DNA from: an uncultured Gammaproteobacteria bacterium
GTDB lineage: Bacteria; Pseudomonadota; Gammaproteobacteria; JABCZS01
NCBI GenBank assembly: GCA_963848305.1
Contig: CAWKDC010000003.1
Location: forward strand, 151,398 to 215,397
Direction of reading: 5' to 3'
Length of the DNA: 64,000 bases
The notes beneath the pieces were generated by a model. The model did no database searches. It saw only the letters and a program-made list of their open reading frames with translations, and had not been told where the DNA came from. The position numbers and the translations under genes were made by a program. This document shows positions 44,609 to 63,599 of the stretch, in pieces (within the stretch, counting starts at the first letter, position 1; each line of letters begins with the position of its first letter).

Positions 44609-44990
44609 AGTCGCACATTATCATGACACAAGAACGCAGGATAGGATAAAATACCATGAGCGCTGAAGGCGCGAGAGAAAATGTCACGAGACTCGAAGAG
44701 CACCCCATTATCATGAAACAAGGGCCCAGGCCGAAGGCCTGCAAGCAAATAGCCCAGGGTCAGGTGCGCAAAGCGCACCGCAACCCTGGGTTTAATAGGA
44801 TAAAATATCACGAGCGCTGAAGGCGCGAGAGAAAATGTCACGAGACTCGAAGAGCACCCCATTATCATGAAACAAGGGCCCAGGCCGAAGGCCTGCAAGT
44901 CAATAGCCCAGGGTTGCGGTGCGCAAAGCGCACCGCAACCCTGGGTTTGATAGGATAAAATATCACGAGCGCTGAAGGCGCGAGAGAAAT
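44609..44990. repeat. tandem array of ~154-bp composite palindromic units (REPIN/BIME-like), left of the yhcG-like gene
   Basis: Unit starts (GCACCCCATTATCATG) at 44700 and 44854, preceded by a degenerate partial unit. Each unit carries hairpins CAGGCC-GAA-GGCCTG and CCCAGGGT..GCGCAAAGCGC..ACCCTGGG (a perfect 18-bp stem at about 44908-44946) and two AAAAT(A/G)TCACGAG boxes. Confidence 0.85.
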
Positions 44991-45130
44991 AAAAATTCAA
45001 GATATTAATAACCGTTATTAAGTCAATTGTAATTTGATATTGCAGTGTGTTTCATCTTGTCTCACTGATTGCTGGATATGAAGAAGCCCCGTGAGCCCAA
45101 TTAAAACAACACGACGATAAGGATATAAAA

Positions 45131-46310: not shown

Positions 46311-47218
46311 TCGCAGGCCGAAGGCCTGCAAGCAAATAGCCCAGGGTCAGGTGCGCAAAGCGCACCGCAACCCTGGGTTTGATAGGATAAAATATCACGA
46401 GCGCTGAAGGCGCGAGAGAAAATGTCACGAGACTCGAAGCGCACCCCATTATCATGAAACAAGGGCCCAGGCCAACGGCCTGCAAGCAAATAGCCCAGGG
46501 CCAGGTGCGCAAAGCGCACCGCAACCCTGGGTTTGATAGGATAAAATATCACGAGCGCTGAAGGCGCGAGAGAAAATGTCACGAGACTCGAAGCGCACCC
46601 CATTATCATGAAACAAGGCCCAGGCCAACGGCCTGCAAGCAAATAGCCCAGGGTCAGGTGCGCAAAGCGCACCGCAACCCTGGGTTTAATAGGATAAAAT
46701 ATCACGAGCGCTGAAGGCGCGAGAGAAAATGTCACGAGACTCGAAGCGCACCCCATTATCATGAAACAAGGCCCCAGGCCAAAGGCCTGCAAGTCAATAG
46801 CCCAGGGTCAGGTGCGCAAAGCGCACCGCAACCCTGGGTTTGATAGGATAAAATATCACGAGCGCTGAGGGAGCGAGAGAAAATGTCACGCGCTTTCAGC
46901 GCTACCTTCAATCAACTGATCGTTACCTGGGGCGTTGCCCCAGGCTATTAACTCACAGGCCTTCGGCCTGATCGGGTTTTTAAAGGTCGGATGATGAAAA
47001 TTTGGATTTCTTCAGACTCAAAGAGCACCCCATTATCATGAAACAAGGGCCCAGGCCAACGGCCTGCAAGCAAATAGCCCAGGGCCAGGTGCGCAAAGCG
47101 CACCGCAACCCTGGGTTTAATAGGATAAAATGTCACGCGCTTTCAGCGCTACCTTCAATCAACTGATCGTTACCTGGGGCGTTGCCCCAGGCTATTAACT
47201 CACAGGCCTTCGGCCTGA
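46311..47218. repeat. tandem array of 153-154-bp composite palindromic units plus two inverted diverged units (REPIN/BIME-like)
   Basis: Unit starts at 46441, 46595, 46748 and 47025. Two ~92-bp identical segments (about 46880-46971 and 47127-47218) contain the same three hairpin types in the opposite orientation (AGCGC/GCGCT, CCTGGGGC-GTT-GCCCCAGG, CAGGCC-TTCG-GCCTG). Confidence 0.85.
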
Positions 47219-47238: not shown

Positions 47239-47282
47239 AGCTGGCAACAGGAATCGAACCCGTGACCTACTGATTACAAATC
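47239..47282. repeat. att direct repeat (duplicate of the 3' 44 nt of tRNA-Thr)
   Basis: AGCTGGCAACAGGAATCGAACCCGTGACCTACTGATTACAAATC is identical to 55662-55705. The sequences diverge immediately after it. Confidence 0.9.
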
Positions 47283-47426
47283 GGGCACGATACTTGTTTC
47301 ATCAGTGTTCACCATGCTTCATATAATTACACAGTTTCATTCAAAAACCCCTATTTTGATAGTGTTATTCGTAGTAACATAGTGCAGGGCGTTTCATCTC
47401 GTTTCACTGATTGCCACCTTCACAGA

Positions 47427-47446
47427 GGAACCCTATGAGGAACCCC
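47427..47446 (+). promoter_or_regulatory. tandem GGAACCC(C) repeats near the integrase-proximal island end (candidate integrase arm-type sites)
   Basis: GGAACCCTATGAGGAACCCC with 12-nt periodicity. The same motif recurs at 55575-55611 at the other island end. Confidence 0.3.
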
Positions 47447-47480
47447 AATATTTGTAATTAAACTAACGGAATAGAAGTTA

Positions 47481-48701
47481 ATGCAATTTACAGAAAAACA
47501 GATACAAGCGCTGAAACCCAAAGAACAGCGATATGATATTCGAGAAAAAAGTGGGAGTGGGTTCGCGGTACGTGTTTTTACCTCGGGCGAAAAATCTTGG
47601 ATATTCTTTTATAACTTTGAGGGAAGAAAACGTCGCATGACCCTGGGTAGTTATCCAGCGCTTAGTTTAAGCGAGGCGAGATCTCTTCATCGTAATGCTC
47701 TAACCATCTTAGCTCATGGGAATGATCCCGGTTTAAGCAAACAGAAAGAAAAACTTGAAACGCGCTTATCTGCCACCATCGAAGCTCTAATTCACGAATA
47801 TATAGAAAAATGGGCTAAGCCTCGCAAGCGTTCATGGCAAGAAGATGAAAGAATTTTACTAAAAGATGTTCAGCCCGCATTCAGAAACAGAAAGGCCAGA
47901 GACATCACAAAGCGCGACATCCTGTTGCTTCTAGACAAAATCAAAGAACGAAACGCCCCAATTGCCGCCAACCGTACATTGGCTTGCGTGAGACGGCTGT
48001 TTAATTTTGCTGTCGAGCGAGACATCATCACCAGCAGCCCTTGCTCATCAATCAAAGCACCTGCCAAAGAGAATCGTCGCGAACGTTGTTTATCGCTTGA
48101 TGAAATTAGGTGTGTTTGGGACGGCCTGCCTAAGGCACGCATGTCGCTAAGTACTCAGCTTGTTCTTAAATTCCAGCTTGTCACAGCGCAGCGTAAAGGC
48201 GAGGTCATTACTGCTGAATGGAGCGATTTTGACATTACTGCTGGCTGGTGGACGATCCCTGCTTCAAAAGCAAAAAATGATCATGTAAATCGAGTCCCGC
48301 TCTCAAAGCTCGCGATTCAACTCCTTGATGAAATTAAAACGATATCAGGTGATTCGCACTGGCTTTTCCCTGCCGTTCGAGGTGATGGACATATCGGAGG
48401 CCAATCCATTGATCACGCAGTGCGTAGAAGTATTGAAGTATTTGAGGTCATAGATCCGTGGACACCACACGATCTCAGAAGAACTGCGGCCACTCACATC
48501 ACTGGCATGGGTATACCTCGTCTCGTTGTGAGCAAACTTCTAAATCATGCGGAGAATAGTGTGACAGCTATTTATGACCGCCATAGCTATGATGCTGAAA
48601 AAAAGCATGCTTTAGATGTCTGGGCGACGAAATTGCAAAATCTGATCGATGGCGTTGACTCTTCCGACAATATCATTGCATTGAAAAAAATCGGGGGTTG
48701 A
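47481..48701 (+). CDS. int: tyrosine-type site-specific integrase (P4-like, DUF4102 arm-binding N-domain)
   Basis: 406-aa ORF. N-terminus LKPKEQRYDIREKSGSGFAVRVFTSGEKSWIFFY...MTLGSYPALSLSEAR. Catalytic region with TPHDLRRTAATH and AIYDRHSY. Confidence 0.9.
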   Translation: MQFTEKQIQALKPKEQRYDIREKSGSGFAVRVFTSGEKSWIFFYNFEGRKRRMTLGSYPALSLSEARSLHRNALTILAHGNDPGLSKQKEKLETRLSATIEALIHEYIEKWAKPRKRSWQEDERILLKDVQPAFRNRKARDITKRDILLLLDKIKERNAPIAANRTLACVRRLFNFAVERDIITSSPCSSIKAPAKENRRERCLSLDEIRCVWDGLPKARMSLSTQLVLKFQLVTAQRKGEVITAEWSDFDITAGWWTIPASKAKNDHVNRVPLSKLAIQLLDEIKTISGDSHWLFPAVRGDGHIGGQSIDHAVRRSIEVFEVIDPWTPHDLRRTAATHITGMGIPRLVVSKLLNHAENSVTAIYDRHSYDAEKKHALDVWATKLQNLIDGVDSSDNIIALKKIGG

Positions 48702-48704
48702 TCA

Positions 48705-49517
48705 GTGGAGAGCGAAAAATTTCAAGAAATAGCTTTAAACGATTTAAAGACATCACCGACGTTTGGTGGTATGGAAATGCCCCGAAAATCAAATCCTAGA
48801 AAATCATCTCCCAAAAAAAGAAAGAAAGCAAAAAGGTACAAACCGATTGCACTGCATCTTTCTGATGAAAAGATTGCGGCAATTAAGGCTGATTTAGCAG
48901 TAATTGGAAAAAAATATGGTTTCAAGGAGGACTATGATCTTTATCAAAATCTACTTTCCTTGCGGAGTCACGTTGACGCACATGAGATTGCTGTAATGAA
49001 CTACCCTCGTCCAGCAGAAACAAAAGACCAATTGGTAAACCTGTTGAAGACAGCCAAAGAGCTGAGCAGACTCTTTGCTAGAAATACTGCATTACAAACA
49101 AAGATTCGCTTACTAGAAGCTCCTGAATTATTTGCTCAGAGGGGATACACGAATCTAAAGCGCCAAAATGGTGATTGGCATTTTAATCAATTTCAAAAAG
49201 ATCTTGATGTATTAATCAGGAATGCTCATTTTGCATTGGAACTTGTACCTGTAGATCAAGGTGGTAGGAAGGCATTTTGTAGAGCAGAAACGGCTATATT
49301 TTGGCTTGCTTCTTATTTTGGACAGGGCACAGATACGATACCTAGATGTGGCGAGAAGTATGAAAAGAATTGTTACATCGGAGAATTTTATGACTTTATA
49401 TTAGACATCGAGGGATGTCTAAATGATGTAGGTATAGACCTGCCCAATCGTAAAACAATTGGAAAATACGCGACAATACAGTCCTCAAGATATAGAGCAT
49501 TAATTGGCAAGAAATAA
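48705..49517 (+). CDS. hypothetical island protein (270 aa, Lys/Arg-rich N-terminal segment)
   Basis: GTG-start ORF 4 nt after the int stop. PRKSNPRKSSPKKRKKAKRYKP basic tract. No recognisable domain. Confidence 0.5.
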   Translation: MESEKFQEIALNDLKTSPTFGGMEMPRKSNPRKSSPKKRKKAKRYKPIALHLSDEKIAAIKADLAVIGKKYGFKEDYDLYQNLLSLRSHVDAHEIAVMNYPRPAETKDQLVNLLKTAKELSRLFARNTALQTKIRLLEAPELFAQRGYTNLKRQNGDWHFNQFQKDLDVLIRNAHFALELVPVDQGGRKAFCRAETAIFWLASYFGQGTDTIPRCGEKYEKNCYIGEFYDFILDIEGCLNDVGIDLPNRKTIGKYATIQSSRYRALIGKK

Positions 49518-49643
49518 CAATCCATACTGGTGAACAGTGACACTACTTCTTTCAAAAAAGCATAGGTAGCGTCGCTGTGATCAATCAACAACGATGTGGT
49601 CTACTGAATACCGTTAAGCAATGGTAATTTAGGAGACACTAAC

Positions 49644-49838
49644 ATGCAATCTTGTCCTACCCAAAGCTCTTTGATTCGATACAAAGCATTAAAACAGCTA
49701 ATTGGCGTCAGTCGCTCCACAATATTCAGATGGGAGCGTGACTCAAAGTTTCCACATCATTTCAATTTAGGTGGTAATACTATCGCCTGGCGCCTATCAG
49801 AGGTGGAGGAGTGGATTGCAGAAAAACAAAAAGCTTAA
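49644..49838 (+). CDS. alpA: AlpA-family phage regulatory protein / excisionase-like HTH
   Basis: 64-aa ORF. LIRYKALKQLIGVSRSTIFRWERDSKFPHHFNLGGNTIAWRLSEVEEWI is typical of Phage_AlpA. Confidence 0.85.
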   Translation: MQSCPTQSSLIRYKALKQLIGVSRSTIFRWERDSKFPHHFNLGGNTIAWRLSEVEEWIAEKQKA

Positions 49839-49912
49839 GCATCAAAGGTAGCGCCGAAGGCAGGAATGGCAATCGGCGCAAATTAAGTTTCAAACACACA
49901 GGATTATACCAT

Positions 49913-50896
49913 ATGGACAAATATATTGGTTTCAATAGAAACAACCTCCCCACCCCCACTGAAGTTTTAAATATGCTCAGCATCAAAATACCCAAGCCTA
50001 ATCGAGGTGGATTTTTTGAAATAACATGCCCCGTACATTCTGGCGGCAAAGAAAAGCATCCTTCACTACATGTGCACAATGTGGACGGTTATTTTTTGTG
50101 CCAAGCCTGCAACGTTAAAGGTGGTGATGTCATCGATCTTTGGTGCCTTTATACAAGAGAAAATTTTAAGCAGGCAATTCAATCATTGGGGTGCAGTGAT
50201 GATGCGGCTTTAGGAAGTGTAGTGTCACATGCCATGCCTTACTTCGAGAGAATGCTCGAAACTGGGAAGGACATACTCAAAGATAAACAAGAGAAAGCTC
50301 GGCTGTTAAAAAAGTCTGTGATGCGCCATAAACGCCTGGCCCAGCCAGCACCTGAAACCCATGGTTATTTGAAGCTTAAAGGGATCAAGCTTCAAAATCT
50401 GAAGGTTGTTGACGGGTACTTGATCATCCCTATGTACACTGGTCGGTGTCAGCTTGTTTCCTATCAGCGTATCTGGCCTGATCGTACAAAAAAAGTTTTA
50501 GCAAATACCCCTGTCTCGGGGTTATATGGCCTTGTCGGCCTTTACGATGAGACCAAGCCCATTATCATATGCGAGGGGCTCTCAAAAGCCTACGCAATCT
50601 GGGCAAGCCTGGGTATCGCATGTTTTATATCATTTGGACATAGTAACCTTACTGATGCTCTTAAAACAATCCTGATGCATTTTCAGCACAATGCTGAGGT
50701 GATCATTGCGGCAGATAACGATCCGCACGGATTTGGCTTAGAATCCGCAAGAAAGGCATTGGAATCCTTGAAGCTATATCGAATTAAAAATGTACGAATA
50801 GCTATCCCTAAAAAAATTGGTGAAGATTTTTGCGATCTTTATCAAGCTGAAGGCGCTGCTGCCCTTGTTGCTTTATTCGATGAGGTGATGGCATGA
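49913..50896 (+). CDS. DNA primase-like protein (CHC2-type zinc finger + Toprim)
   Basis: CPVHSGGKEKHPSLHV...FLCQACNVKGGDVIDL zinc-binding region. Toprim-like IIICEGLSKAYAIW...IAADNDPHG. The track ORF starts at 49811; the ATG at 49913 is preferred. Confidence 0.75.
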   Translation: MDKYIGFNRNNLPTPTEVLNMLSIKIPKPNRGGFFEITCPVHSGGKEKHPSLHVHNVDGYFLCQACNVKGGDVIDLWCLYTRENFKQAIQSLGCSDDAALGSVVSHAMPYFERMLETGKDILKDKQEKARLLKKSVMRHKRLAQPAPETHGYLKLKGIKLQNLKVVDGYLIIPMYTGRCQLVSYQRIWPDRTKKVLANTPVSGLYGLVGLYDETKPIIICEGLSKAYAIWASLGIACFISFGHSNLTDALKTILMHFQHNAEVIIAADNDPHGFGLESARKALESLKLYRIKNVRIAIPKKIGEDFCDLYQAEGAAALVALFDEVMA

Positions 50897-52757
50897 AAAC
50901 AGACATTGACATAATTAACTGCGAACAATGCGAACAGCGTGAACAACCCAATGGCAACGTGGATTTACAAGGTTCGCATGACAAAACAGCATCTGCGAAC
51001 GTTGCGAACGATTCACATATAAACGATCATGATGAGTTGATGACAAAGATTCTGAGACCATCGTTCATTTGTCATGTTAATCCCTTTGTAAGAGATGGCA
51101 ATGAGATGAGGGAGGGTCTTTATTGGCATAATGTCGTGTCCACGAATGATGGGCGAGTGGAAGTTGATGAATGGATCTGCACACCATTGCGTGTAGTTGC
51201 AATATCTTCATCGCCCAAAAGCGACTTTTTTGGCCGGCTTCTCGAATTTCAAGATAGCAACGGAAAATGGCACACATGGGCGATGCCTATGCATTTGCTA
51301 AAAAGCACTGGTGATGAATTGCGTGCAGAACTGTTAGACAAAGGGCTAATTTTCGATCAGAAAAAACGTAACTTACTTACTCAATATATTTTGAGTGCAA
51401 ACTCTGAGAGAAAAATTATTGCCGCAAGCACTGTTGGCTGGCACAAAAACTCTTTTGTTTTACCCGGTCATGTGATCGGCAATGATGATGTGATTTTTCA
51501 GTCCGAAGAGGCAGAGAATGATGAATTTGTAACGACCGGCACGCTCGATGGTTGGCAGACTGAAATTGGACTACATTCCGAGAATAATATCCCTTTAATG
51601 GTCTCAATCTCAGCTGTCCTTGCGGGCCATTATTTCGACGAGCCAATCGTCAGCAAGGTGGAGGTATTCATTGGATCGGGGATTCATCATCCGGAAAATC
51701 CACTTGCGTTGAAGTTGCGGCATCAGTTTGGGGTTCGCCTGAGCTCATACGCTCCTGGAGTGCCACTGCCAATGGTTTAGAAGGTATAGCATCTGTCCGC
51801 AATGATCTGTGTCTATTGTTGGATGAAATTGACGAGGCCTTGACGGATGAAGTCGGTAAGATTGTTTATTTGCTTGCAAATGGACGTGGAAAGCAACGAG
51901 CTGGACGCACTGGTTTAGCAAGAAAAACCAGCAAGTGGTGCACAATGACAATTTCTACTGGCGAGCGTGATTTGTCATCAATCATTGGCGAGTCGGGTAA
52001 GCGTGCGAATGCGGGTCAAATGGTGCGCCTTCTCAACATACCTTCCCGTTTCGAGCATGGTGTTTTTAGTGACTTGCATGGTTTTTCAGGTGGACGTGCT
52101 CTTGCCGATCACTTGAAAGTTAAGAGGTTAGAACATCACGGGCATGTTGGTCCAGCCTTTATCAGAAAGTTAATTGATGAAAGGGGGGATTTGAGTGAAA
52201 AGCTAGAAATGTTAACCAAACAGCTGATCACCTGCGCGATGTCTCATCTCGAAGAGCGTGCTGCAGGCTTATTTGCACTTATAGCCTTAGCAGGTGAATT
52301 GGGAATTGAGTATGGGCTGTTGCCGTGGAAAGAAGGGGGGGCTATTAATGCGGTTACAGAGGCCTTCCTAAGGTGGCAGGAATTCCATGGCGTTGGACAT
52401 ACAGAAGATCAGCAGATCCTTAAATCAATAAGTAGTTACATTGAGAAATACGCAGATTCTCGATTTTCCTCATATAAAGAAAATTCTGACAATCAAGACA
52501 GCAGGCCTGTGAATGTCCGTTCTGGCTGGTTTAAAGAGGATGATAAAAATGGACGCGTTTACATGTTTACAGGTGAAGCACTTGACGAAGCAGCCGGGCG
52601 ATATCCACGTCAACGCATTATTGATGCATTGAACAAATATGGCTGGATTGCAGAAAGAAGTGATAAGCGATGGACCAAAAAGGTCAGAGTACAGGGGATG
52701 ACTAATGGAAAAGAACTCTATCACATCAGAGAGGTTGAGCTTGATCATGGGGATTGA
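50893..52757 (+). pseudogene. DUF927-family replicative helicase-like protein, interrupted by a 1-nt frame shift
   Basis: ORF 50893..51780 has the DUF927-like N-domain (WICTPLRVVA...FGRLLEFQDSNGKWHTWAMP). My translation of a third frame reads PLFRRANRQQGGGIHWIGDSSSGKSTCVEVAASVWG (Walker A) and runs into ORF 51816..52757. The junction is at GCGGGCCATT, about 51623-51628. Confidence 0.75.
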
Positions 52758-53163
52758 TGAAGTCATTAACAAGTTTTGTTCGCAGCCTATAGCGCGTCGC
52801 GAACATGTTGCGAACGCCAAAACGTCCGCCATTCCTGGACGTTCGCACCGTTCGCAGTGTTCGCACCAGCAAATCGTTACATCGAATCCAAAATCAACCT
52901 ATCAGCTTGTTGAGGAATTTATTGACAAGGCGGCTGGGCTTGGTGTTGATTTATCATGGGATGATCAACGGTGGCTGAAGAACATGCTCTGGGATGTTAA
53001 CATGGCTGATGCCCATAAATTGTTATGTCAGTATTACATTGAATGGTGTGACGGTGCAGCTGCTGAAAAAATGGAGCACAAGAAGTGTAATGCTGGCCGA
53101 CTTCGTGCTAACACTTTTTTGCGTGAAACTCTTTCATCAATGCACCAATGGAGAAAAAAATGA
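52705..53163 (+). CDS. hypothetical island protein (152 aa; start may be the ATG at 52747)
   Basis: The ORF overlaps the helicase 3' end. No recognisable domain. Confidence 0.4.
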   Translation: MEKNSITSERLSLIMGIDEVINKFCSQPIARREHVANAKTSAIPGRSHRSQCSHQQIVTSNPKSTYQLVEEFIDKAAGLGVDLSWDDQRWLKNMLWDVNMADAHKLLCQYYIEWCDGAAAEKMEHKKCNAGRLRANTFLRETLSSMHQWRKK

Positions 53164-53759
53164 ACGTAGAAGATATCAATAAGCCCAAAATTTATCATGT
53201 AAACAATCAAAAAGTTGAGGCCGAGCAGGGTATCAAATTTCGTGCGGATTCGAGTGATGGGCAGATACAATCGGATCAAATCACAAAACAACTTAATGAA
53301 GAGAGCAAGGAATATAAGATTGCAGAAGCAAAAGCATTTGCCGGAAGCTGGGGACAAACCACTCTGACTATTGAAATGTTGTGCGGTAGTCGCCTCGACA
53401 TTAATTGCCTGATGGATGAGCTCAAAGTACAGATAAGGGAGCTCGTTGATGATGGTTCTCGTCAGAGCGCAATCATGTTGGCCAGCAGCTCCATCGCGTT
53501 AAATGTGCTTTCCCACAATTTGCTGCGTAATTCAAGCAAAGCAGTGAGCGTCGAAGAAGGCTTGGCACGCGCCGATCTTGCTCTGAAATCATTCGATCAG
53601 GTTCGAAAAATGCTGTTAGCGTTGGATCAAATAAAAAGACCCAGGCAGCAGATTACTCAAAACAACTATTTGCAAGAATCCGTGCAAACAAACATTTTAG
53701 ATCCTCAAAACGAAAAGGTAGGGTCAACATTAAAGGGGGTGAACGATGAAGCAACGTAG
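53148..53759 (+). CDS. hypothetical island protein (203 aa)
   Basis: Overlaps both neighbouring ORFs, suggesting one operon. No recognisable domain. Confidence 0.45.
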   Translation: MEKKMNVEDINKPKIYHVNNQKVEAEQGIKFRADSSDGQIQSDQITKQLNEESKEYKIAEAKAFAGSWGQTTLTIEMLCGSRLDINCLMDELKVQIRELVDDGSRQSAIMLASSSIALNVLSHNLLRNSSKAVSVEEGLARADLALKSFDQVRKMLLALDQIKRPRQQITQNNYLQESVQTNILDPQNEKVGSTLKGVNDEAT

Positions 53760-53964
53760 GTGGAACGAGGATCAGCGCAGACAACACAGTCAATTGATTC
53801 ATAATGTTAGGCCCTGGGAATCTGGTACAGGCCCTCGTACGCCCGAGGGGTTGGCTATCAGCAAGATGAACGCCTTACGAACTGGTCTATATGCTGCTGA
53901 GCTTCGTGAGGCAAGAAGGCATTTAGCGGAATGCAGAAGATTAACAAGAAATATAGCAAGCTAG
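53746..53964 (+). CDS. hypothetical small basic island protein (72 aa)
   Basis: The GPRTPEGLAISKMNALRTGLYA segment resembles small conserved proteins I recall near integrases. Function unknown. Confidence 0.4.
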   Translation: MKQRRWNEDQRRQHSQLIHNVRPWESGTGPRTPEGLAISKMNALRTGLYAAELREARRHLAECRRLTRNIAS

Positions 53965-54068
53965 CTTATATATGTATTTTTATCAGAACCATTCATCCGG
54001 TTGCACTGGTGTGCAAGAAAGTGTATCATTCTTCAAACTGAAAACCCATTGAGTAGTAGGAGGGGTAG

Positions 54069-54554
54069 ATGAAGTTGGTAGTGAGAGGCCTGATCATGCT
54101 GGCAGGGATGGCTCTGGTCTTGCCTATATATGCGAGCACAATGACAGCAACGTGCATGAACTTTGAAGGGCCACAAACAGATTACATAACAAACGCAATT
54201 AATCCTGACAGTGATATAGCCTTCAATAAATTCGATGATCATAAATCAAAAATAAGTGGTGAAAAATCAATCCTCATTTGGGAGCAGGGTAATAGCACTG
54301 CAAAAATTATGTTTAAAGGAAATGAAGCAAATGCTGCTGAACACTGGCACGATCTCATTTTGCTATCAAATGAAACCGCTCATGGTGAGCAACAAGTGAC
54401 TTTTATTGGCATGTCTAGGGGTGCTCCAATCATGTATTCCGTTTACCCAGAGAGCAATGTTGTGATTTTTTCACAGCATAGTCACTGGAGCTTTGTGATG
54501 GAAGGTGTAAGGACTTTCATGTTCCATTCAAAATGCGATATTAAATTCAAATGA
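54069..54554 (+). CDS. hypothetical secreted protein (161 aa, signal peptide)
   Basis: N-terminal MKLVVRGLIMLAGMALVLPIYAS, with GGAGG upstream. No recognisable domain. Confidence 0.5.
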   Translation: MKLVVRGLIMLAGMALVLPIYASTMTATCMNFEGPQTDYITNAINPDSDIAFNKFDDHKSKISGEKSILIWEQGNSTAKIMFKGNEANAAEHWHDLILLSNETAHGEQQVTFIGMSRGAPIMYSVYPESNVVIFSQHSHWSFVMEGVRTFMFHSKCDIKFK

Positions 54555-54586
54555 TTTTCTGAAGCCGAAGACACTGGAACAGTATT

Positions 54587-54985
54587 GTGATAAACAAGTT
54601 GATAGCTTTTAAATATTTTCTCACGGCAACAATTTTGTTAGCAAATACCATCGCAATGGCCGAATGGACAAGTGTGCTTTCAGAAAAGAATAGGACGTCA
54701 TATATTGATTTCGCTACACTCAAAAAAACAGGAGGTTTCGTAAAAGTATGGGGTATGGATGAATTTAAAACACCAGAAAAATTTGGGAAAGATAATGTTT
54801 CTTCGCTCAGCACACAATATGAATTTAACTGTAAAGAGAGATCAACTAGAATTATTGCTGGTTATTCCTATAATGAAATCGGGGAGGTTGAGGATTTTTT
54901 TTTACAACCAACGGACTGGCTACCAATTCCGCCAGGATCAAGGGCTGATATCATCATGAGCAAAGTTTGTGATGATGCTGATTAA
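54587..54985 (+). CDS. secreted protein resembling the surface-adhesin E (Adhesin_E) family
   Basis: GTG start and signal peptide (LTATILLANTIAMA). Pattern W..V....SYIDF.T......VKVW......S....YEFNCKERS.R......Y...G.......WLPIPPGS......VC matches my recollection of Adhesin_E proteins. Confidence 0.45.
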   Translation: MINKLIAFKYFLTATILLANTIAMAEWTSVLSEKNRTSYIDFATLKKTGGFVKVWGMDEFKTPEKFGKDNVSSLSTQYEFNCKERSTRIIAGYSYNEIGEVEDFFLQPTDWLPIPPGSRADIIMSKVCDDAD

Positions 54986-55030
54986 TATCCCCTGTATCAT
55001 ATTTGGACGTCAGCGCATTGACGATCGTAG

Positions 55031-55537
55031 CTATTTTCTCTTCAATTTCCCCATATAGTTCGCATAACAATTTTTGACAGTGACTGAATCAGTTGTGTGA
55101 AAATTTTCAAATCGTAACTCTAAATGAATGGTAGCAGGATTATTAGGATTAAAGTTGCTTATCATAACATCAGTGGCAAGATAATGATTAAATTGTTGCT
55201 TTATTATGAATTGAGAGTGCACCAACTGATTTTGATTGACTGTAATTTTTCCAACAGTTCCCGAAACGTGGTCATCAAACCTTGACCATCCTCCAGTTAA
55301 CCTAAGTACGACTGGATCGTCGCTATAAGGATTAGGATTTTCAATATCACACGTAATATTGTACCATCTATTAAGAACAAGCGAGTTTTCTAAATTTATT
55401 GTAAATGTCTTATTTGGTAGAACGGTGCCTCCTGGAAGGGGTACTGCATCAATAGATTTAGATTTTGCTTGCGAAGCTAATGTTATGGAAATCATCCCAG
55501 CAAGAATAAGTATCAGTATGCGTCCCTTTGCTTTCAT
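55031..55537 (-). CDS. hypothetical secreted protein (168 aa, signal peptide)
   Basis: MKAKGRILILILAGMISITLASQA. No recognisable domain. The only minus-strand gene in the island. Confidence 0.5.
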   Translation of the reverse strand: MKAKGRILILILAGMISITLASQAKSKSIDAVPLPGGTVLPNKTFTINLENSLVLNRWYNITCDIENPNPYSDDPVVLRLTGGWSRFDDHVSGTVGKITVNQNQLVHSQFIIKQQFNHYLATDVMISNFNPNNPATIHLELRFENFHTTDSVTVKNCYANYMGKLKRK

Positions 55538-55574
55538 TTAATCTCCCTATTTTCAATGAAGTCCATCTCTCAAA

Positions 55575-55611
55575 GGAACCCCACGGGGAACCCCAGGATT
55601 GTCCAGAACCC
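55575..55611 (+). promoter_or_regulatory. GGAACCCC repeats near the tRNA-proximal island end (candidate integrase arm-type sites)
   Basis: GGAACCCC at 55575 and 55587 (12-nt spacing), plus AGAACCC at 55605. Confidence 0.3.
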
Positions 55612-55661
55612 AAGAAGAGGGCAGGATATTTTTAACCTATTGTTCTTATTGTTTTAATTAA

Positions 55662-55734
55662 AGCTGGCAACAGGAATCGAACCCGTGACCTACTGATTAC
55701 AAATCAGTTGCTCTACCTGCTGAGCTATGCCAGC
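55662..55734 (-). tRNA. tRNA-Thr (anticodon TGT)
   Basis: Minus strand reads GCTGGCATAGCTCAGCAGGTAGAGCAACTGATTTGTAATCAGTAGGTCACGGGTTCGATTCCTGTTGCCAGCT. Acceptor GCTGGCA/TGCCAGC, anticodon loop TTTGTAA. Confidence 0.92.
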
Positions 55735-60311: not shown

Positions 60312-61778
60312 ATGCAAACACATCAAACACTGAAAGATGCTTTCTGTATTCTACTCCTTTCATTGTTTATATTGATCACCACCACACAAGGCTATCCGTT
60401 ACTCAATCACGATGAATCCCGTTATTCTGAAATTCCCCGTGAAATGGTGGCAACAGGGGAATATATTGTTCCTCGCCTCAATGGCATTATTTATCTGGAA
60501 AAACCCCCGCTATTTTATTGGCTCCAATCTCTGTCTATTAGCGTGTTTGGAAACAATGAAGGGGCTGTCCGGTTTTGGAATGCTTTCTTTGCTTCCTTCA
60601 CGTGCATGATGCTATATATCGCTGGCGCTGTGCTCTATGATCGTCGCACCGGCCTTGTTGCCGCTGGGTTATTGTTTTCAAGCTTGTTATTTTATGCAAT
60701 GGCACATTTTATATCGCTCGATATGACACTCAGTGCTTTTGTGACTGGCAGTTTATTTTGTTTAATGATTGGACTTCATCGTCCTCAGCAGGATGACGTC
60801 CGACGCGCATGGATATATGGCAGCTACATTTTTGCTGCATTGGCGCTGATGACAAAAGGGTTGGTTGGTATTTTATTGCCGGGCAGTGTGTTTGTGATTT
60901 GGATGTTATTAACACGACGTTTTATTGCACTGAAACAGATCTATTTAGTATCAGGGTTGTTATTGTTTTTTGCCATTGCATTGCCATGGCATATCCTCAT
61001 TCAGGAACGCGTCCCACAGTTTTTTGACTTTTACGTGGTAGGGCAACATTTTAACCGCTATCTCACCTTGGCCGAGAATCGATATGAACCTTTTTGGTTT
61101 TTCATCCCAGTACTATTAGCAGGATTGCTGCCCTGGACTTTTTACGTGATCCCTTCATTGTACCATTCATGTCGAGGTTGGTTGCGCAATATCAAAGGCA
61201 AATCCACTGAGACATTTTTATGGGTGTGGATTTTATTTATTTTTATTTTCTTCTCATTGTCAAAATCCAAATTAATCCCGTACATTCTACCTGTTTTCCC
61301 GCCTATCTTTTTATTATTGGCGACGGATATATCCATCTTTCGTCCATCTCGATTTCCAAAAATTAAAACTTTGCTGGGAATAGGATTGTGCGCTGTGATT
61401 ATTTACTCCGTTGCCGTTCCCACTTGGACATATTACGCTGATCGATCCATCAAACCACTGGCCATGTTAATCAACGAAAGAAAAGGCCAATATGATGAGC
61501 TTGTTTCATTCGGTGAATATTATCAGGATTTACCATTTTATACTGAACAATTGGTCACTGTGGTTAACAGCCAGGGTGAATTAGATTTTGGGATGACACT
61601 TGAAGATAAAACAGATTATATGATCAATCAACAAACATTATTTAAGCGATGGGAAAATCCAAATCACCGTATCTTGATGGTGATCAGCCGGAAAAAATAT
61701 AAAAATATTGTTTCAAAGCTCTCTCCGCCACCAAAAATATTGGGTGAAACGCCGAAGCATATTTTAATCATGAATTGA
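60312..61778 (+). CDS. glycosyltransferase family 39 (ArnT/PMT-like) membrane protein
   Basis: MQTHQTL..., then YPLLNHDESRYSEIPREMVATGEYIVPRLNGIIYLEKPPLFYW and about 12 TM helices. The track ORF starts at 60276. Confidence 0.8.
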   Translation: MQTHQTLKDAFCILLLSLFILITTTQGYPLLNHDESRYSEIPREMVATGEYIVPRLNGIIYLEKPPLFYWLQSLSISVFGNNEGAVRFWNAFFASFTCMMLYIAGAVLYDRRTGLVAAGLLFSSLLFYAMAHFISLDMTLSAFVTGSLFCLMIGLHRPQQDDVRRAWIYGSYIFAALALMTKGLVGILLPGSVFVIWMLLTRRFIALKQIYLVSGLLLFFAIALPWHILIQERVPQFFDFYVVGQHFNRYLTLAENRYEPFWFFIPVLLAGLLPWTFYVIPSLYHSCRGWLRNIKGKSTETFLWVWILFIFIFFSLSKSKLIPYILPVFPPIFLLLATDISIFRPSRFPKIKTLLGIGLCAVIIYSVAVPTWTYYADRSIKPLAMLINERKGQYDELVSFGEYYQDLPFYTEQLVTVVNSQGELDFGMTLEDKTDYMINQQTLFKRWENPNHRILMVISRKKYKNIVSKLSPPPKILGETPKHILIMN

Positions 61779-61839
61779 AAAATATACACCAATATTTTAT
61801 ATTGTACGGGTGCACCATGCTGCACACCATCATGAAATT

Positions 61840-63069
61840 TCACAATTTAATTAAATCCGCCCTTGTCAACATTGCTCCCAGTATGACATTCAAATAAATG
61901 CTATTCGCCTTCTCATGCCCAACACTATGGCTTAATAGAAATGCAGATTGTTCTGCCTCATTCAACCCTGAAGGCACTTTGCGTTTGCAATGTGAATGGA
62001 TATACCGTTTTGGTGAAAACGGAACGCCTGCTGCTTTCGCCGTTTCATCCATCGCAAGTTGTTCCATGCAAGACAATCCGCTCGCACGTAAAATAATTGT
62101 TTGACTGCGCCACATCATGCTTGCAATGTTTTCTGGTGTTTGCATTTCGAGGGGGATGATGTATAAATTCGAATTCCTTTCTCGATTTCTCAAACATTTT
62201 TGCATGAGATGATCAAACAGGGCATGGTTTCGTGAGCACGCGACAAAAAAATAATGGGGAACATTTAAGGGTTGATTTGAATAATTTTCCCATATTCCAT
62301 TGAAATATTCTTCAATCGCTTCGAGGCCTTGTGAGCCCATCATCAGCGTAGTGACTTGAGCGTTTTCAGGTAGACTGAGATTATTGGTGGAGGACAAACC
62401 ATAATAAGAAGCAAGCTTTGGGTGGATATTCACCTGCACATTATTCATATTATTGGGTAACTGTTTGAAAGCGGTGTGAACAGGCTTGCTCCAGCGACTG
62501 TGCACGTCAACAGGATTAATCTTGCAATATTTTTCCCAAAAATGTGCTTGATGCTTTTTCTTGGTTGCCAATGGTTTGTTGCTGTGTAGTAGAAACGTGA
62601 CGTTATCAAAGTGAGCACGTTTCTTAATACCTGAGAAGCAAGGATGCGTTTTATTGACGGGCAGGTCTGTCAATACCTTGTGGTAGGTGACAGGTGTTTG
62701 AGTTGCCGCTGCCATCTGCCGTACCAGGAAAGGGGTGAAAACAGGCTGTGTATCGATGACGGTATCTATAGGGTATGCGCTGAATAGAGCCTGAATATCA
62801 CTGGCCAGCTTTTGTCCAAAAAAGTAGTCGTAAAAGAATTCATAAACCCCGACGGCGGCCGGCAGGTAATGGGCAATCAAGGAGTCTTGGCGTATACCGG
62901 CGTTCCACAGGTCCACGATAATGGGTTTAACGGGGTAAAAATAGTTGACCATGTCAAGCATATGGACTGTGGCATCAGGGTGTTTTAAGGCCAATTCCGC
63001 CTTGATGTTATGAGTAGCCACCGTATGGCCATGCCCGCTGGAGCAGGTGATGAAGAGTATATGTTGCAT
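61840..63069 (-). CDS. putative glycosyltransferase (GT28 / MGDG-synthase-like N-terminus)
   Basis: MQHILFITCSSGHGHTVATHNIKAELALKH resembles the N-terminus of MGDG-synthase/UgtP-type enzymes. The rest is not recognisable to me. Confidence 0.45.
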   Translation of the reverse strand: MQHILFITCSSGHGHTVATHNIKAELALKHPDATVHMLDMVNYFYPVKPIIVDLWNAGIRQDSLIAHYLPAAVGVYEFFYDYFFGQKLASDIQALFSAYPIDTVIDTQPVFTPFLVRQMAAATQTPVTYHKVLTDLPVNKTHPCFSGIKKRAHFDNVTFLLHSNKPLATKKKHQAHFWEKYCKINPVDVHSRWSKPVHTAFKQLPNNMNNVQVNIHPKLASYYGLSSTNNLSLPENAQVTTLMMGSQGLEAIEEYFNGIWENYSNQPLNVPHYFFVACSRNHALFDHLMQKCLRNRERNSNLYIIPLEMQTPENIASMMWRSQTIILRASGLSCMEQLAMDETAKAAGVPFSPKRYIHSHCKRKVPSGLNEAEQSAFLLSHSVGHEKANSIYLNVILGAMLTRADLIKL

Positions 63070-63441: not shown

Positions 63442-63599
63442 GGTAAACTCTCCTCTATGAGTGAGCCGTCATTGTCCTAAAATTTCAAGCACCTGTCAAG
63501 CGAAAAATGCAGCCTTTTTGCCCTCTGGATGCTGAAAGCCTCTGATCCCATGAATAAACAATTCCCTTTTTCCCCATTAAAAGGTATACTGCACGCATT

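Follow-up and report, generated by a model that had tools for sequence, protein, structure and literature searches.

The tRNA-Thr island

An island of 8.4 kb with 11 genes is integrated at a tRNA-Thr(UGU) gene of an uncultured Gammaproteobacteria bacterium (assembly GCA_963848305.1). It was studied within a stretch of 64,000 nucleotides of contig CAWKDC010000003.1 (positions 151,398 to 215,397), here called the window, and its features are listed in Table 1. The island is interpreted as a small integrative, self-replicating element with helper-dependent transfer, most likely a phage satellite of the type of phiAH14b, the Gram-negative phage-inducible chromosomal islands (PICIs) and the phage-inducible chromosomal minimalist islands, or PICMIs; the chances of this reading being right are judged about even.

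The island is delimited by an exact 44-bp direct repeat (47239-47282 and 55662-55705) returned by a repeat finder. The 32-nt core of this repeat, searched with at most 3 mismatches, has two sites only in the 64 kb, with 0 expected by chance, and the boundaries proposed in the initial annotation of the sequence are confirmed. The repeat corresponds to positions 30-73 of the tRNA. It had been described as starting at the anticodon loop; it does run through the loop to the 3' end, but it begins earlier, with the last two bases of the 5' strand of the anticodon stem. This extent fits what would be expected of crossover in the anticodon loop. A tRNA-integrated genomic island, as defined for Islander (PMC4383910), has a regenerated tRNA gene, a displaced 3' fragment that forms direct repeats with it, and a tyrosine integrase inside, all of which are found here. 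The tRNA-Thr gene lies alongside tRNA-Leu(caa), with queA, yajC and secD to the right. In the flanks the G+C content is 0.46-0.49; it falls to 0.43 in the island backbone and to 0.38 in the cargo (the last 1.7 kb). All island genes except one, encoding the 168-aa cargo protein, are on the plus strand.

The gene list of the initial annotation was confirmed by searches with Pfam, NCBIfam and PHROGs, with corrections to the helicase (split), the primase start and the family of the 132-aa protein. Pfam and PHROG scans of the island proteins revealed no capsid, terminase, tail, lysis, holin, conjugation or toxin genes, and no relaxase, mobI or coupling-protein genes. Promoter and terminator scans of the sequence performed no better than on shuffled sequence.

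Table 1 Features of the tRNA-Thr island (window coordinates)
Feature	Position	Strand	Basis and remarks
Displaced 3' fragment of tRNA-Thr(UGU), distal att repeat adjoining int	47239..47282	-	Exact 44-bp copy; weak partial Rfam tRNA match
Conserved segment upstream of int	47364..47414	+	Repeat comparison; 76% identical to 45022-45072 upstream of DUF1016/YhcG gene
Doubled motif AGGAACCCTATGAGGAACCCCA, candidate integrase arm-type site, int-proximal arm	47426..47447	+	Pattern search
Tyrosine integrase, 406 aa, P4/CP4-57 type, reads into island	47481..48701	+	Arm-DNA-bind_3 4e-20, Phage_int_M 5e-10, Phage_integrase 6e-23; PRK09692 3e-38
Integrase-contiguous 270-aa protein, rare family	48705..49517	+	Starts 4 nt past int stop codon
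AlpA-family helix-turn-helix (HTH) protein, 64 aa	49644..49838	+	Phage_AlpA 4e-17
DnaG-type primase, CHC2 zinc ribbon and Toprim, 327 aa	49913..50896	+	Zn_ribbon_DnaG 2e-7, Toprim_3 7e-7; phrog_2249/510/47 DNA primase
DUF927 replicative helicase, 621 aa when intact	50893..52757	+	DUF927 3e-37 and 2e-8 on two halves
Iteron-like cluster 1, five TGCGAAC, two pairs at 9-bp spacing	50920..51009		Within poorly conserved first 40 helicase codons
152-aa ORF linked to DUF927 helicases	52705..53163	+	phrog_852 1e-7, phrog_31018 2e-6
Iteron-like cluster 2, five TGCGAAC, three tandem at 9-bp spacing; candidate origin	52778..52865		Just past helicase stop
199-aa backbone protein, first gene of conserved pair	53160..53759	+	Homologues in L017 (7e-12) and Polaromonas pH8NP1 (5e-6)
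72-aa backbone protein, second gene of pair	53746..53964	+	Homologues in L017 (5e-24), plasmids of Polaromonas, Anabaena and Pseudanabaena, and Ralstonia
Cargo, 161-aa protein, signal-peptide-like N-terminus	54069..54554	+	Low-GC segment; sole member of its own 90% cluster
Cargo, 132-aa secreted Adhesin_E-like protein	54587..54985	+	Pfam Adhesin_E PF16747, 6e-19
Cargo, 168-aa protein, signal-peptide-like N-terminus	55031..55537	-	No family
Doubled motif AGGAACCCCACGGGGAACCCCA, candidate integrase arm-type site, tRNA-proximal arm	55574..55595	+	Pattern search
Intact tRNA-Thr(UGU); 3' 44 nt (55662-55705) form second att repeat	55662..55734	-	ARAGORN (tgt); Rfam tRNA 73.6 bits

The probable replicon

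The primase and helicase genes are adjacent, with the stop codon of the former overlapping the start codon of the latter (ATGA). The primase most likely starts at 49913, as called in the related contig L005, rather than at a GTG at 49811. In the window a C-run at 51626 has lost 1 nt, which splits the helicase gene into two open reading frames (ORFs), 50893-51780 and 51816-52757, and leaves the Walker A motif (GDSSSGKST) in the third frame. Two Logan contigs from two other sequencing runs, L005 (47253-55691) and L006 (47239-52151), are 99.98% identical to the window and read GCGGGCCCATT where the window reads GCGGGCCATT, that is, CCC instead of one C fewer. L005 encodes a single helicase of 621 aa and the CCC of L006 stands at the same site, so the natural element has an intact helicase. 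The sole further difference between L005 and the window is C>T at 53832; the frameshift is therefore a homopolymer error of sequencing or assembly, or else a deletion that inactivated the gene recently. In the latter case the window copy would be unable to replicate autonomously.

More than 1000 DUF927 relatives of the helicase were found, the best with 55% identity and most of them from uncultured Gammaproteobacteria. Their genomic contexts keep AlpA, Toprim primase, DUF927 helicase and a small ORF in that order, and vary in the position of int and in accessory genes (Fic/RhuM, HTH proteins, unknowns). A scan of genome contigs with the repaired helicase returned four distant loci only. Among phage collections the best matches, 35-37% identical, are vB_Pae_U10 (10.2 kb) and phiAH14b (16.8 kb), both with the order int ... 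AlpA ... Toprim primase, DUF927 helicase. phiAH14b has been reported to be induced together with phiAH14a and to be packaged into this helper's capsids (PMC4936722). The kinship with the phiAH14b helicase is the strongest link of the island to a satellite lifestyle. The other match, vB_Pae_U10 (PP003922.1, L030), is filed as a complete phage. Besides int, regulators, primase and DUF927 helicase it has a single structural gene, for a P2-type capsid, and gives the impression of a PICI-type satellite rather than of a phage.

Of the 15 copies of the heptamer TGCGAAC in the window, 11 lie in the island, 10 of them gathered in two 90-bp clusters at the two ends of the helicase gene. The spaced pair TGCGAAC-NN-TGCGAAC has 4 matches against 0.04 expected, and the tandem heptamers of cluster 2 point the other way from the pairs of cluster 1. 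Other DUF927 loci likewise have heptamer pairs with 9-bp spacing at the helicase 5' end, CGAGAAC in L016 and AGGGAAC in L004, and in phiAH14b ten copies of GGGGAAC directly follow the helicase gene. The common form nGnGAAC suggests that these are origin iterons of this replicase family.

Integrase and attachment sites

The integrase sequence shows the R...HxxR...Y residues. The pattern AGGAACCC-N5-GGAACCCCA has exactly 2 copies in the 64 kb, where 0.01 are expected; they are co-oriented and lie one inside each island end, at offsets of +187 and -88 relative to the 44-bp repeat. The same layout of doubled motifs, with different motifs, is found in four related elements. L018 has ACGACAC doubled at both ends, which are tRNA fragments, and L016 has GGGTATAAyCA doubled inside a pair of 41-nt tRNA-Arg repeats 8.8 kb apart. 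In an island on the megaplasmid of Ralstonia solanacearum MolK2, GGCTACAT is doubled at +177 and -77 from a 49-nt tRNA-Lys repeat, while phiAH14b carries GAGTAGAT doubled at both ends. For HE-PICIs a doubled motif on both arms of attP has been described and the integrase's arm domains were suggested to bind it (Mageeney et al., PMC10111431). By the same reasoning the doubled motifs of the island are likely integrase arm-type sites, and in the circular form they would sit either side of the core.

The integrase gene lies at the end far from the intact tRNA and reads inward, an arrangement that the initial annotation had called unusual. It is normal for this class of elements: L016, L018 and the Ralstonia island share it, int aims inward in Gram-negative PICIs (PMC10111431) and is distal to the target gene fis in PICMIs (PMC10803314). 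It does differ from the placement in P4 and phiAH14b, where int comes after the tRNA.

The integrase-adjacent 270-aa protein and AlpA

Between int and alpA lies a gene for a 270-aa protein that gave no usable match in sequence searches of Pfam, PHROGs, PADLOC, NCBIfam and PDB. Only 40 relatives were found among 1.8 billion representative proteins. In four of five readable contexts (L017, L018, L022 and L023) the family member directly follows int; in the fifth, L024, a Bro-N gene lies in between and the family member also carries a Bro-N fusion of its own. A fusion to DUF1016_N is seen in another member. The replicase accompanying the family differs from context to context and may be DUF927, an unclassified 494-aa ATPase, DUF3987, D5_N/DUF5906 or Toprim. 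Structure prediction, which had been proposed for the ORFs without function, gave a confident all-helical AlphaFold (AF2) model for the 270-aa protein (predicted local distance difference test, pLDDT, 88), but a fold search of PDB and BFVD found no neighbour; the single-sequence model of the 168-aa cargo protein was unusable (pLDDT 46).

Gram-negative PICIs have a domain-swapping, Bro-network zone near int (PMC10111431), and since members of the 270-aa family are fused to Bro-N and DUF1016_N the family can be placed in a zone of this type. In PICMIs excision requires the int-adjacent gene (iolg/icg), and alpA suffices to trigger it (PMC10803314). By position the 270-aa protein parallels iolg/icg and may be its counterpart. 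The AlpA protein of the island, which is 80% identical to that of L017, is by analogy likely an excision factor or activator.

The 152-, 199- and 72-aa ORFs

Three overlapping ORFs that follow the helicase had been regarded as possible cargo. This view did not hold. The 152-aa ORF travels with DUF927 helicases and has weak similarity to the post-helicase ORF in L013, L014 and L016. The 199- and 72-aa ORFs form a conserved pair, which is kept in L017, an element whose helicase is a replacement. It is also encoded by plasmids, namely Polaromonas pH8NP1 (L021) and pW9NP1 (L028), Anabaena pANA03 (L020), where it follows a DUF3987 replicase, and Pseudanabaena ABRG53g (L026), where it adjoins CyRepA1, and furthermore by the Ralstonia island. 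The plasmid modules are located near Rep and Par genes and one of the plasmids encodes a MOBV relaxase. Because they are kept in L017 and in small plasmids, the two ORFs are considered backbone and not cargo; they probably belong to the replicon, and genes for proteins of about 200 and 70 aa appear to form an unnamed plasmid/island module.

The 199-aa protein had no match in Pfam and PDB searches. The Anabaena pANA03 protein of 235 aa is tied to its family via the homologues of L017 and Polaromonas (2e-9 and 2e-12; direct E value 0.04), and a 220-aa ORF of the Ralstonia island bears the family motif in the alignment. The 72-aa protein has the motif W..E.R...I..(W).PW..STGP.T.EG....NAL..G, and a search for homologous proteins returned a 96% variant only. 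At the level of the motif, STGP.T.EG...NAL.HG faintly recalls HGGxSTG and small-terminase-like proteins, and one family member matches HGG_STG at E = 0.12. Assignment of the family to HGGxSTG, TerS or DUF5681 did not succeed, with no BLASTP result and 20 columns at 17% probability in hhalign, and the resemblance is treated as no more than a lead. Several plasmid records leave the ORF of the 72-aa family without annotation, or have it in a different frame, overlapping the upstream gene's end.

The Ralstonia island (NZ_CP115947.1, approximately 1525750-1537730; L027/L029) is unannotated. It measures 11.9 kb, is bounded by the 49-nt repeat at tRNA-Lys(ctt), and encodes in order int, HigB/HigA, a DUF7146/Toprim primase, an AAA_25 helicase, an IS21 insertion, the 199/72-aa pair and two secreted proteins, the first of them Adhesin_E-like. 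The Ralstonia island is a possible cultured model for such elements.

Cargo

The last three genes encode proteins with signal-peptide-like N-termini, as judged by eye. The initial annotation had counted them among the genes without recognisable function; this stands for the 161- and 168-aa proteins, as it does for the 270-aa protein, whereas the 132-aa protein belongs to Adhesin_E. The 161- and 168-aa proteins have no family match in Pfam, PHROGs or PADLOC, none of the three has homologues in phages, and all have essentially no relatives in 90% clusters. No PADLOC defence model matched anywhere in the island. The idea of anti-phage cargo was thus left with no known anti-phage signature. In the Ralstonia island a separate Adhesin_E-like secreted protein and the second secreted protein are encoded between the 72-aa homologue and the tRNA. 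The recurrence of Adhesin_E-like secreted cargo at the same position is suggestive and assigns no function. Variable ends of related elements carry candidate toxin-antitoxin or defence genes, a SocA_Panacea-domain gene in L018 (8292-8735) and Fic and RhuM-like genes in L016 (13704-14193).

Proposed mode of life and alternatives

The following course is proposed for the element. The P4-type integrase would have recombined attP with the anticodon-loop region of the tRNA-Thr gene, regenerating the tRNA and displacing the 44-bp fragment observed as the distal repeat; its arm-binding domain would use the doubled GGAACCC motifs inside each island end. Upon a helper signal AlpA would act as excision factor or activator, possibly together with the 270-aa protein, by analogy with alpA and iolg of PICMIs. 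The Toprim primase and the DUF927 helicase would replicate the circle from the TGCGAAC iterons, a role read from the observed genes and repeats, with the 199/72-aa pair as part of the replicon module. Copies would then be packaged in particles of a helper phage, and the three secreted proteins, one of them Adhesin_E-like, would be accessory load.

Several results weigh against a phage satellite. The host region was also found in five other assemblies (two Logan runs, one ENA assembly, one JGI metagenome and one NCBI assembly), and all contigs that reach the island position have the island at the same site, without presence/absence polymorphism. An empty site was sought via the flanking YhcG-like and QueA genes, and only contigs carrying the island or ending short of it were found. 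A circular attP junction and an empty attB, by which the initial annotation would have had the satellite reading checked, were not found either, and neither was a helper phage. A degenerate attL/attR/attB/attP pattern had no match in metagenome contigs; this junction scan is uninformative, since it also missed the attL of L008, a junction known to exist. L005 (8440 nt) was considered as an excised circle and rejected: it ends 30 nt inside each repeat, as a k = 31 unitig bounded by the repeat does, and hence is no evidence of excision. IMG/VR viral contigs searched with the helicase and the 270-aa family contained no relatives, the island DNA has no similarity to phages, and no packaging or capsid-redirecting gene was recognised. 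To these come the presence of the 199/72-aa pair in plasmids and the frameshift in the window helicase. Moreover, the backbone alone does not prove a phage helper, since a core of HTH_17 regulator, DUF927 protein and int/xis occurs in conjugatively mobilised islands.

That the island is, or recently was, a helper-dependent integrative replicon is held with considerable confidence. Whether its helper is a phage is evenly balanced: because of this shared core and the plasmid occurrence of the 199/72-aa pair, the helper could be conjugative. The island would then be a mobilisable genomic island or an integrated plasmid-like replicon, transferred by conjugation via an unrecognised oriT and a helper plasmid or integrative and conjugative element (ICE), or by other non-phage routes. 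This explanation is regarded as rather unlikely. The islands of the MGIVchHai6-like and MGIVflInd1-like groups, which share the core, are mobilised by IncC plasmids or SXT/R391 ICEs (PMC7449626), the 199/72-aa module occurs in small plasmids near Rep/Par genes, once together with a MOBV relaxase, and viral contig collections hold no relatives. However, Pfam and PHROG scans of the island showed no relaxase, mobI or coupling-protein gene, the DUF927 protein of MGIVchHai6 has no partner primase and is dispensable for mobilisation (PMC7449626), and the primase-helicase pair with iterons fits satellites better. The nearest entries of experimental or virion-derived status are satellites as well.

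Two further explanations concern the present state of the island and what it is kept for. It could be a fixed, decaying remnant, immobile and vertically kept, in which the helicase has already been inactivated. The frameshift is in line with this, as is the finding of the same site and the same cargo in all samples of the host lineage, including an island variant of ~98-99% identity that has the same three cargo genes. We consider this quite improbable, since the att repeats have kept full identity over their 44 bp, neither arm motif is damaged and all other genes are open, while the intact helicase of L005 and the CCC of L006 make the frameshift recent or an error in the C-run. Selection could also act mainly on the three secreted proteins, for example by blocking phage adsorption or by adhesion, which would make this a defence or surface-remodelling island with the mobility genes as its vehicle only. 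The low-GC cargo block does encode three exported proteins, an Adhesin_E-like and a second secreted protein stand at the same position in the unrelated Ralstonia island, and relatives carry Fic/RhuM or SocA_Panacea genes there. Nevertheless, neither PADLOC matches nor phage homologues were found for the three proteins, and the explanation is compatible with the others rather than an alternative to them; as the main account it is given a small chance. The reading as a satellite of the phiAH14b/PICI/PICMI type stays preferred.

Islands and plasmids repeatedly carry two unstudied protein families, the int-adjacent 270-aa family and the 199/72-aa pair. The elements that share one or both could form an undescribed lineage of minimal hitchers, with the pair as a new helper packaging or transfer device and the Adhesin_E-like protein as new surface-exclusion cargo; this extended proposal is speculative and we give it little credence.

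Host neighbourhood

Arrays of a palindrome-rich 154-bp unit (46314-47218 and 44640-44989) flank the DUF1016/YhcG-like gene and abut the distal repeat. The main array has 3.8 copies with 96% matches, and L008 has one unit fewer. The arrays look like a mosaic repeat of the REP (repetitive extragenic palindromic) or BIME (bacterial interspersed mosaic element) kind. The stretch 45022-45072 that resembles the segment upstream of int is, like the latter, 51 nt long, and after it comes a decayed version of the arm motif. The segment upstream of int is possibly a promoter or operator, or a trace of an older related island. In view of the 51-nt match, the degraded arm motif and the DUF1016_N fusion of a 270-aa family member, the YhcG-like gene may be a relic of such an older island at the same site. 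Elsewhere in the window the G+C content dips to 0.38-0.42 at 60500-62500, just before a tRNA-Pro at 63599; this may be another acquired segment.

Comparison with known satellites and islands

The initial annotation had recognised the backbone of P4-like satellites and Gram-negative PICIs. A bounded tRNA island with a satellite-type core is indeed present, but it falls outside the SatelliteFinder definitions of P4-like satellites and of PICIs. The island resembles P4 in the integrase family, AlpA, tRNA integration and a replicase with two separate clusters of short iterons, which in P4 are ori and crr. It differs from P4 in that the replicase is split over two genes of other families, not of the P4 alpha type, in that crossover would take place in the anticodon-loop region and not in the T-loop, and in the lack of a C4/isrK-type immunity RNA, of which an Rfam scan of the island gave no sign. 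The P4-like core used by SatelliteFinder consists of int, psu, delta, sid, alpA, epsilon and alpha (PMC10085698). The island has int and alpA, and psu, delta, sid and epsilon are absent, with no Pfam/PHROG match and no spare ORF.

Gram-negative PICIs and HE-PICIs (PMC10111431) share with the island a unidirectional, inward int, AlpA, a primase, a replication zone and a doubled motif on both arms of attP. Of their four zones the integration and replication zones are present, the Bro-network zone near int is linked to the island only via the 270-aa family member of L024, and the late-gene zone (capsid, terS, ppi, rpp) is missing; the 270-aa gene lies between int and alpA and not after alpA. SatelliteFinder requires at least 4 of 5 core components for a PICI, including packaging or capsid-related genes, and no tail or holin genes (PMC10085698). 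DUF927 is listed among its 'Primase' Pfams for PICIs, and a class of 'Type C' is treated as ambiguous and excluded (PMC10085698). With three of the five components (int, alpA and primase) the island would be 'Type C' by these published criteria.

PICMIs of Vibrionaceae (PMC10803314) are similarly minimal, about 6 kb against 8.4 kb here, have int, an int-adjacent gene, alpA, a replicase and small cargo in the same order with int distal to the target, and also have no capsid-remodelling genes. They differ in the target, which is fis instead of tRNA-Thr, and in the primase, which is DUF3987/DUF5906 instead of Zn_ribbon_DnaG/Toprim with DUF927; furthermore, the helper of PICMIs is known. The island therefore matches the PICMI model in size, order and int-adjacent gene and departs from it in primase family and target site. 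The MGIVchHai6-like and MGIVflInd1-like islands (PMC7449626) resemble it in small size, helper dependence and the combination of an integrase, an HTH_17/AlpA-like factor and a DUF927 protein. In contrast to the island at tRNA-Thr they are inserted at trmE or yicC, respond to AcaCD/SetCD, move by conjugation and have no partner Toprim primase described.

The closest resemblance is to phiAH14b (KU708005.1). The two agree in gene order (int, hypothetical, AlpA ... Toprim primase, DUF927 helicase); the helicases are 35% identical over 89% of the length, GAAC-type heptamers at 9-bp spacing adjoin the helicase gene, and attachment is at a tRNA 3' end with a doubled motif at both ends and without capsid or terminase genes. 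However, phiAH14b is twice the size of the island and has many extra small genes, its int follows right after the tRNA 3' end in sense orientation whereas the island int adjoins the displaced fragment, and the CHC2 zinc ribbon is missing from the phiAH14b primase. phiAH14b encodes no homologues of the 270-, 199- and 72-aa proteins, and its cargo consists of a histidine kinase, a lipoprotein and tail assembly protein I. With int, AlpA, an adjacent Toprim primase and DUF927 helicase, GAAC-type iterons and tRNA attachment, the island is of what is here called the phiAH14b type (replicons of Toprim primase and DUF927 helicase), a grouping made in this analysis and not a published family. It is a new addition to a known class of elements and not a new kind of element. 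Small islands that have just int, AlpA and a replicase are left out as ambiguous by present satellite finders, and this case links one such 'Type C' island to the experimentally shown satellite phiAH14b by its replicase, its GAAC-type iterons and its attP layout. Possible marks for sorting these islands are the doubled arm motifs of both ends and, at the helicase gene, heptamers paired at 9-bp spacing. The current picture of satellites is unchanged by this, and their catalogue is extended.

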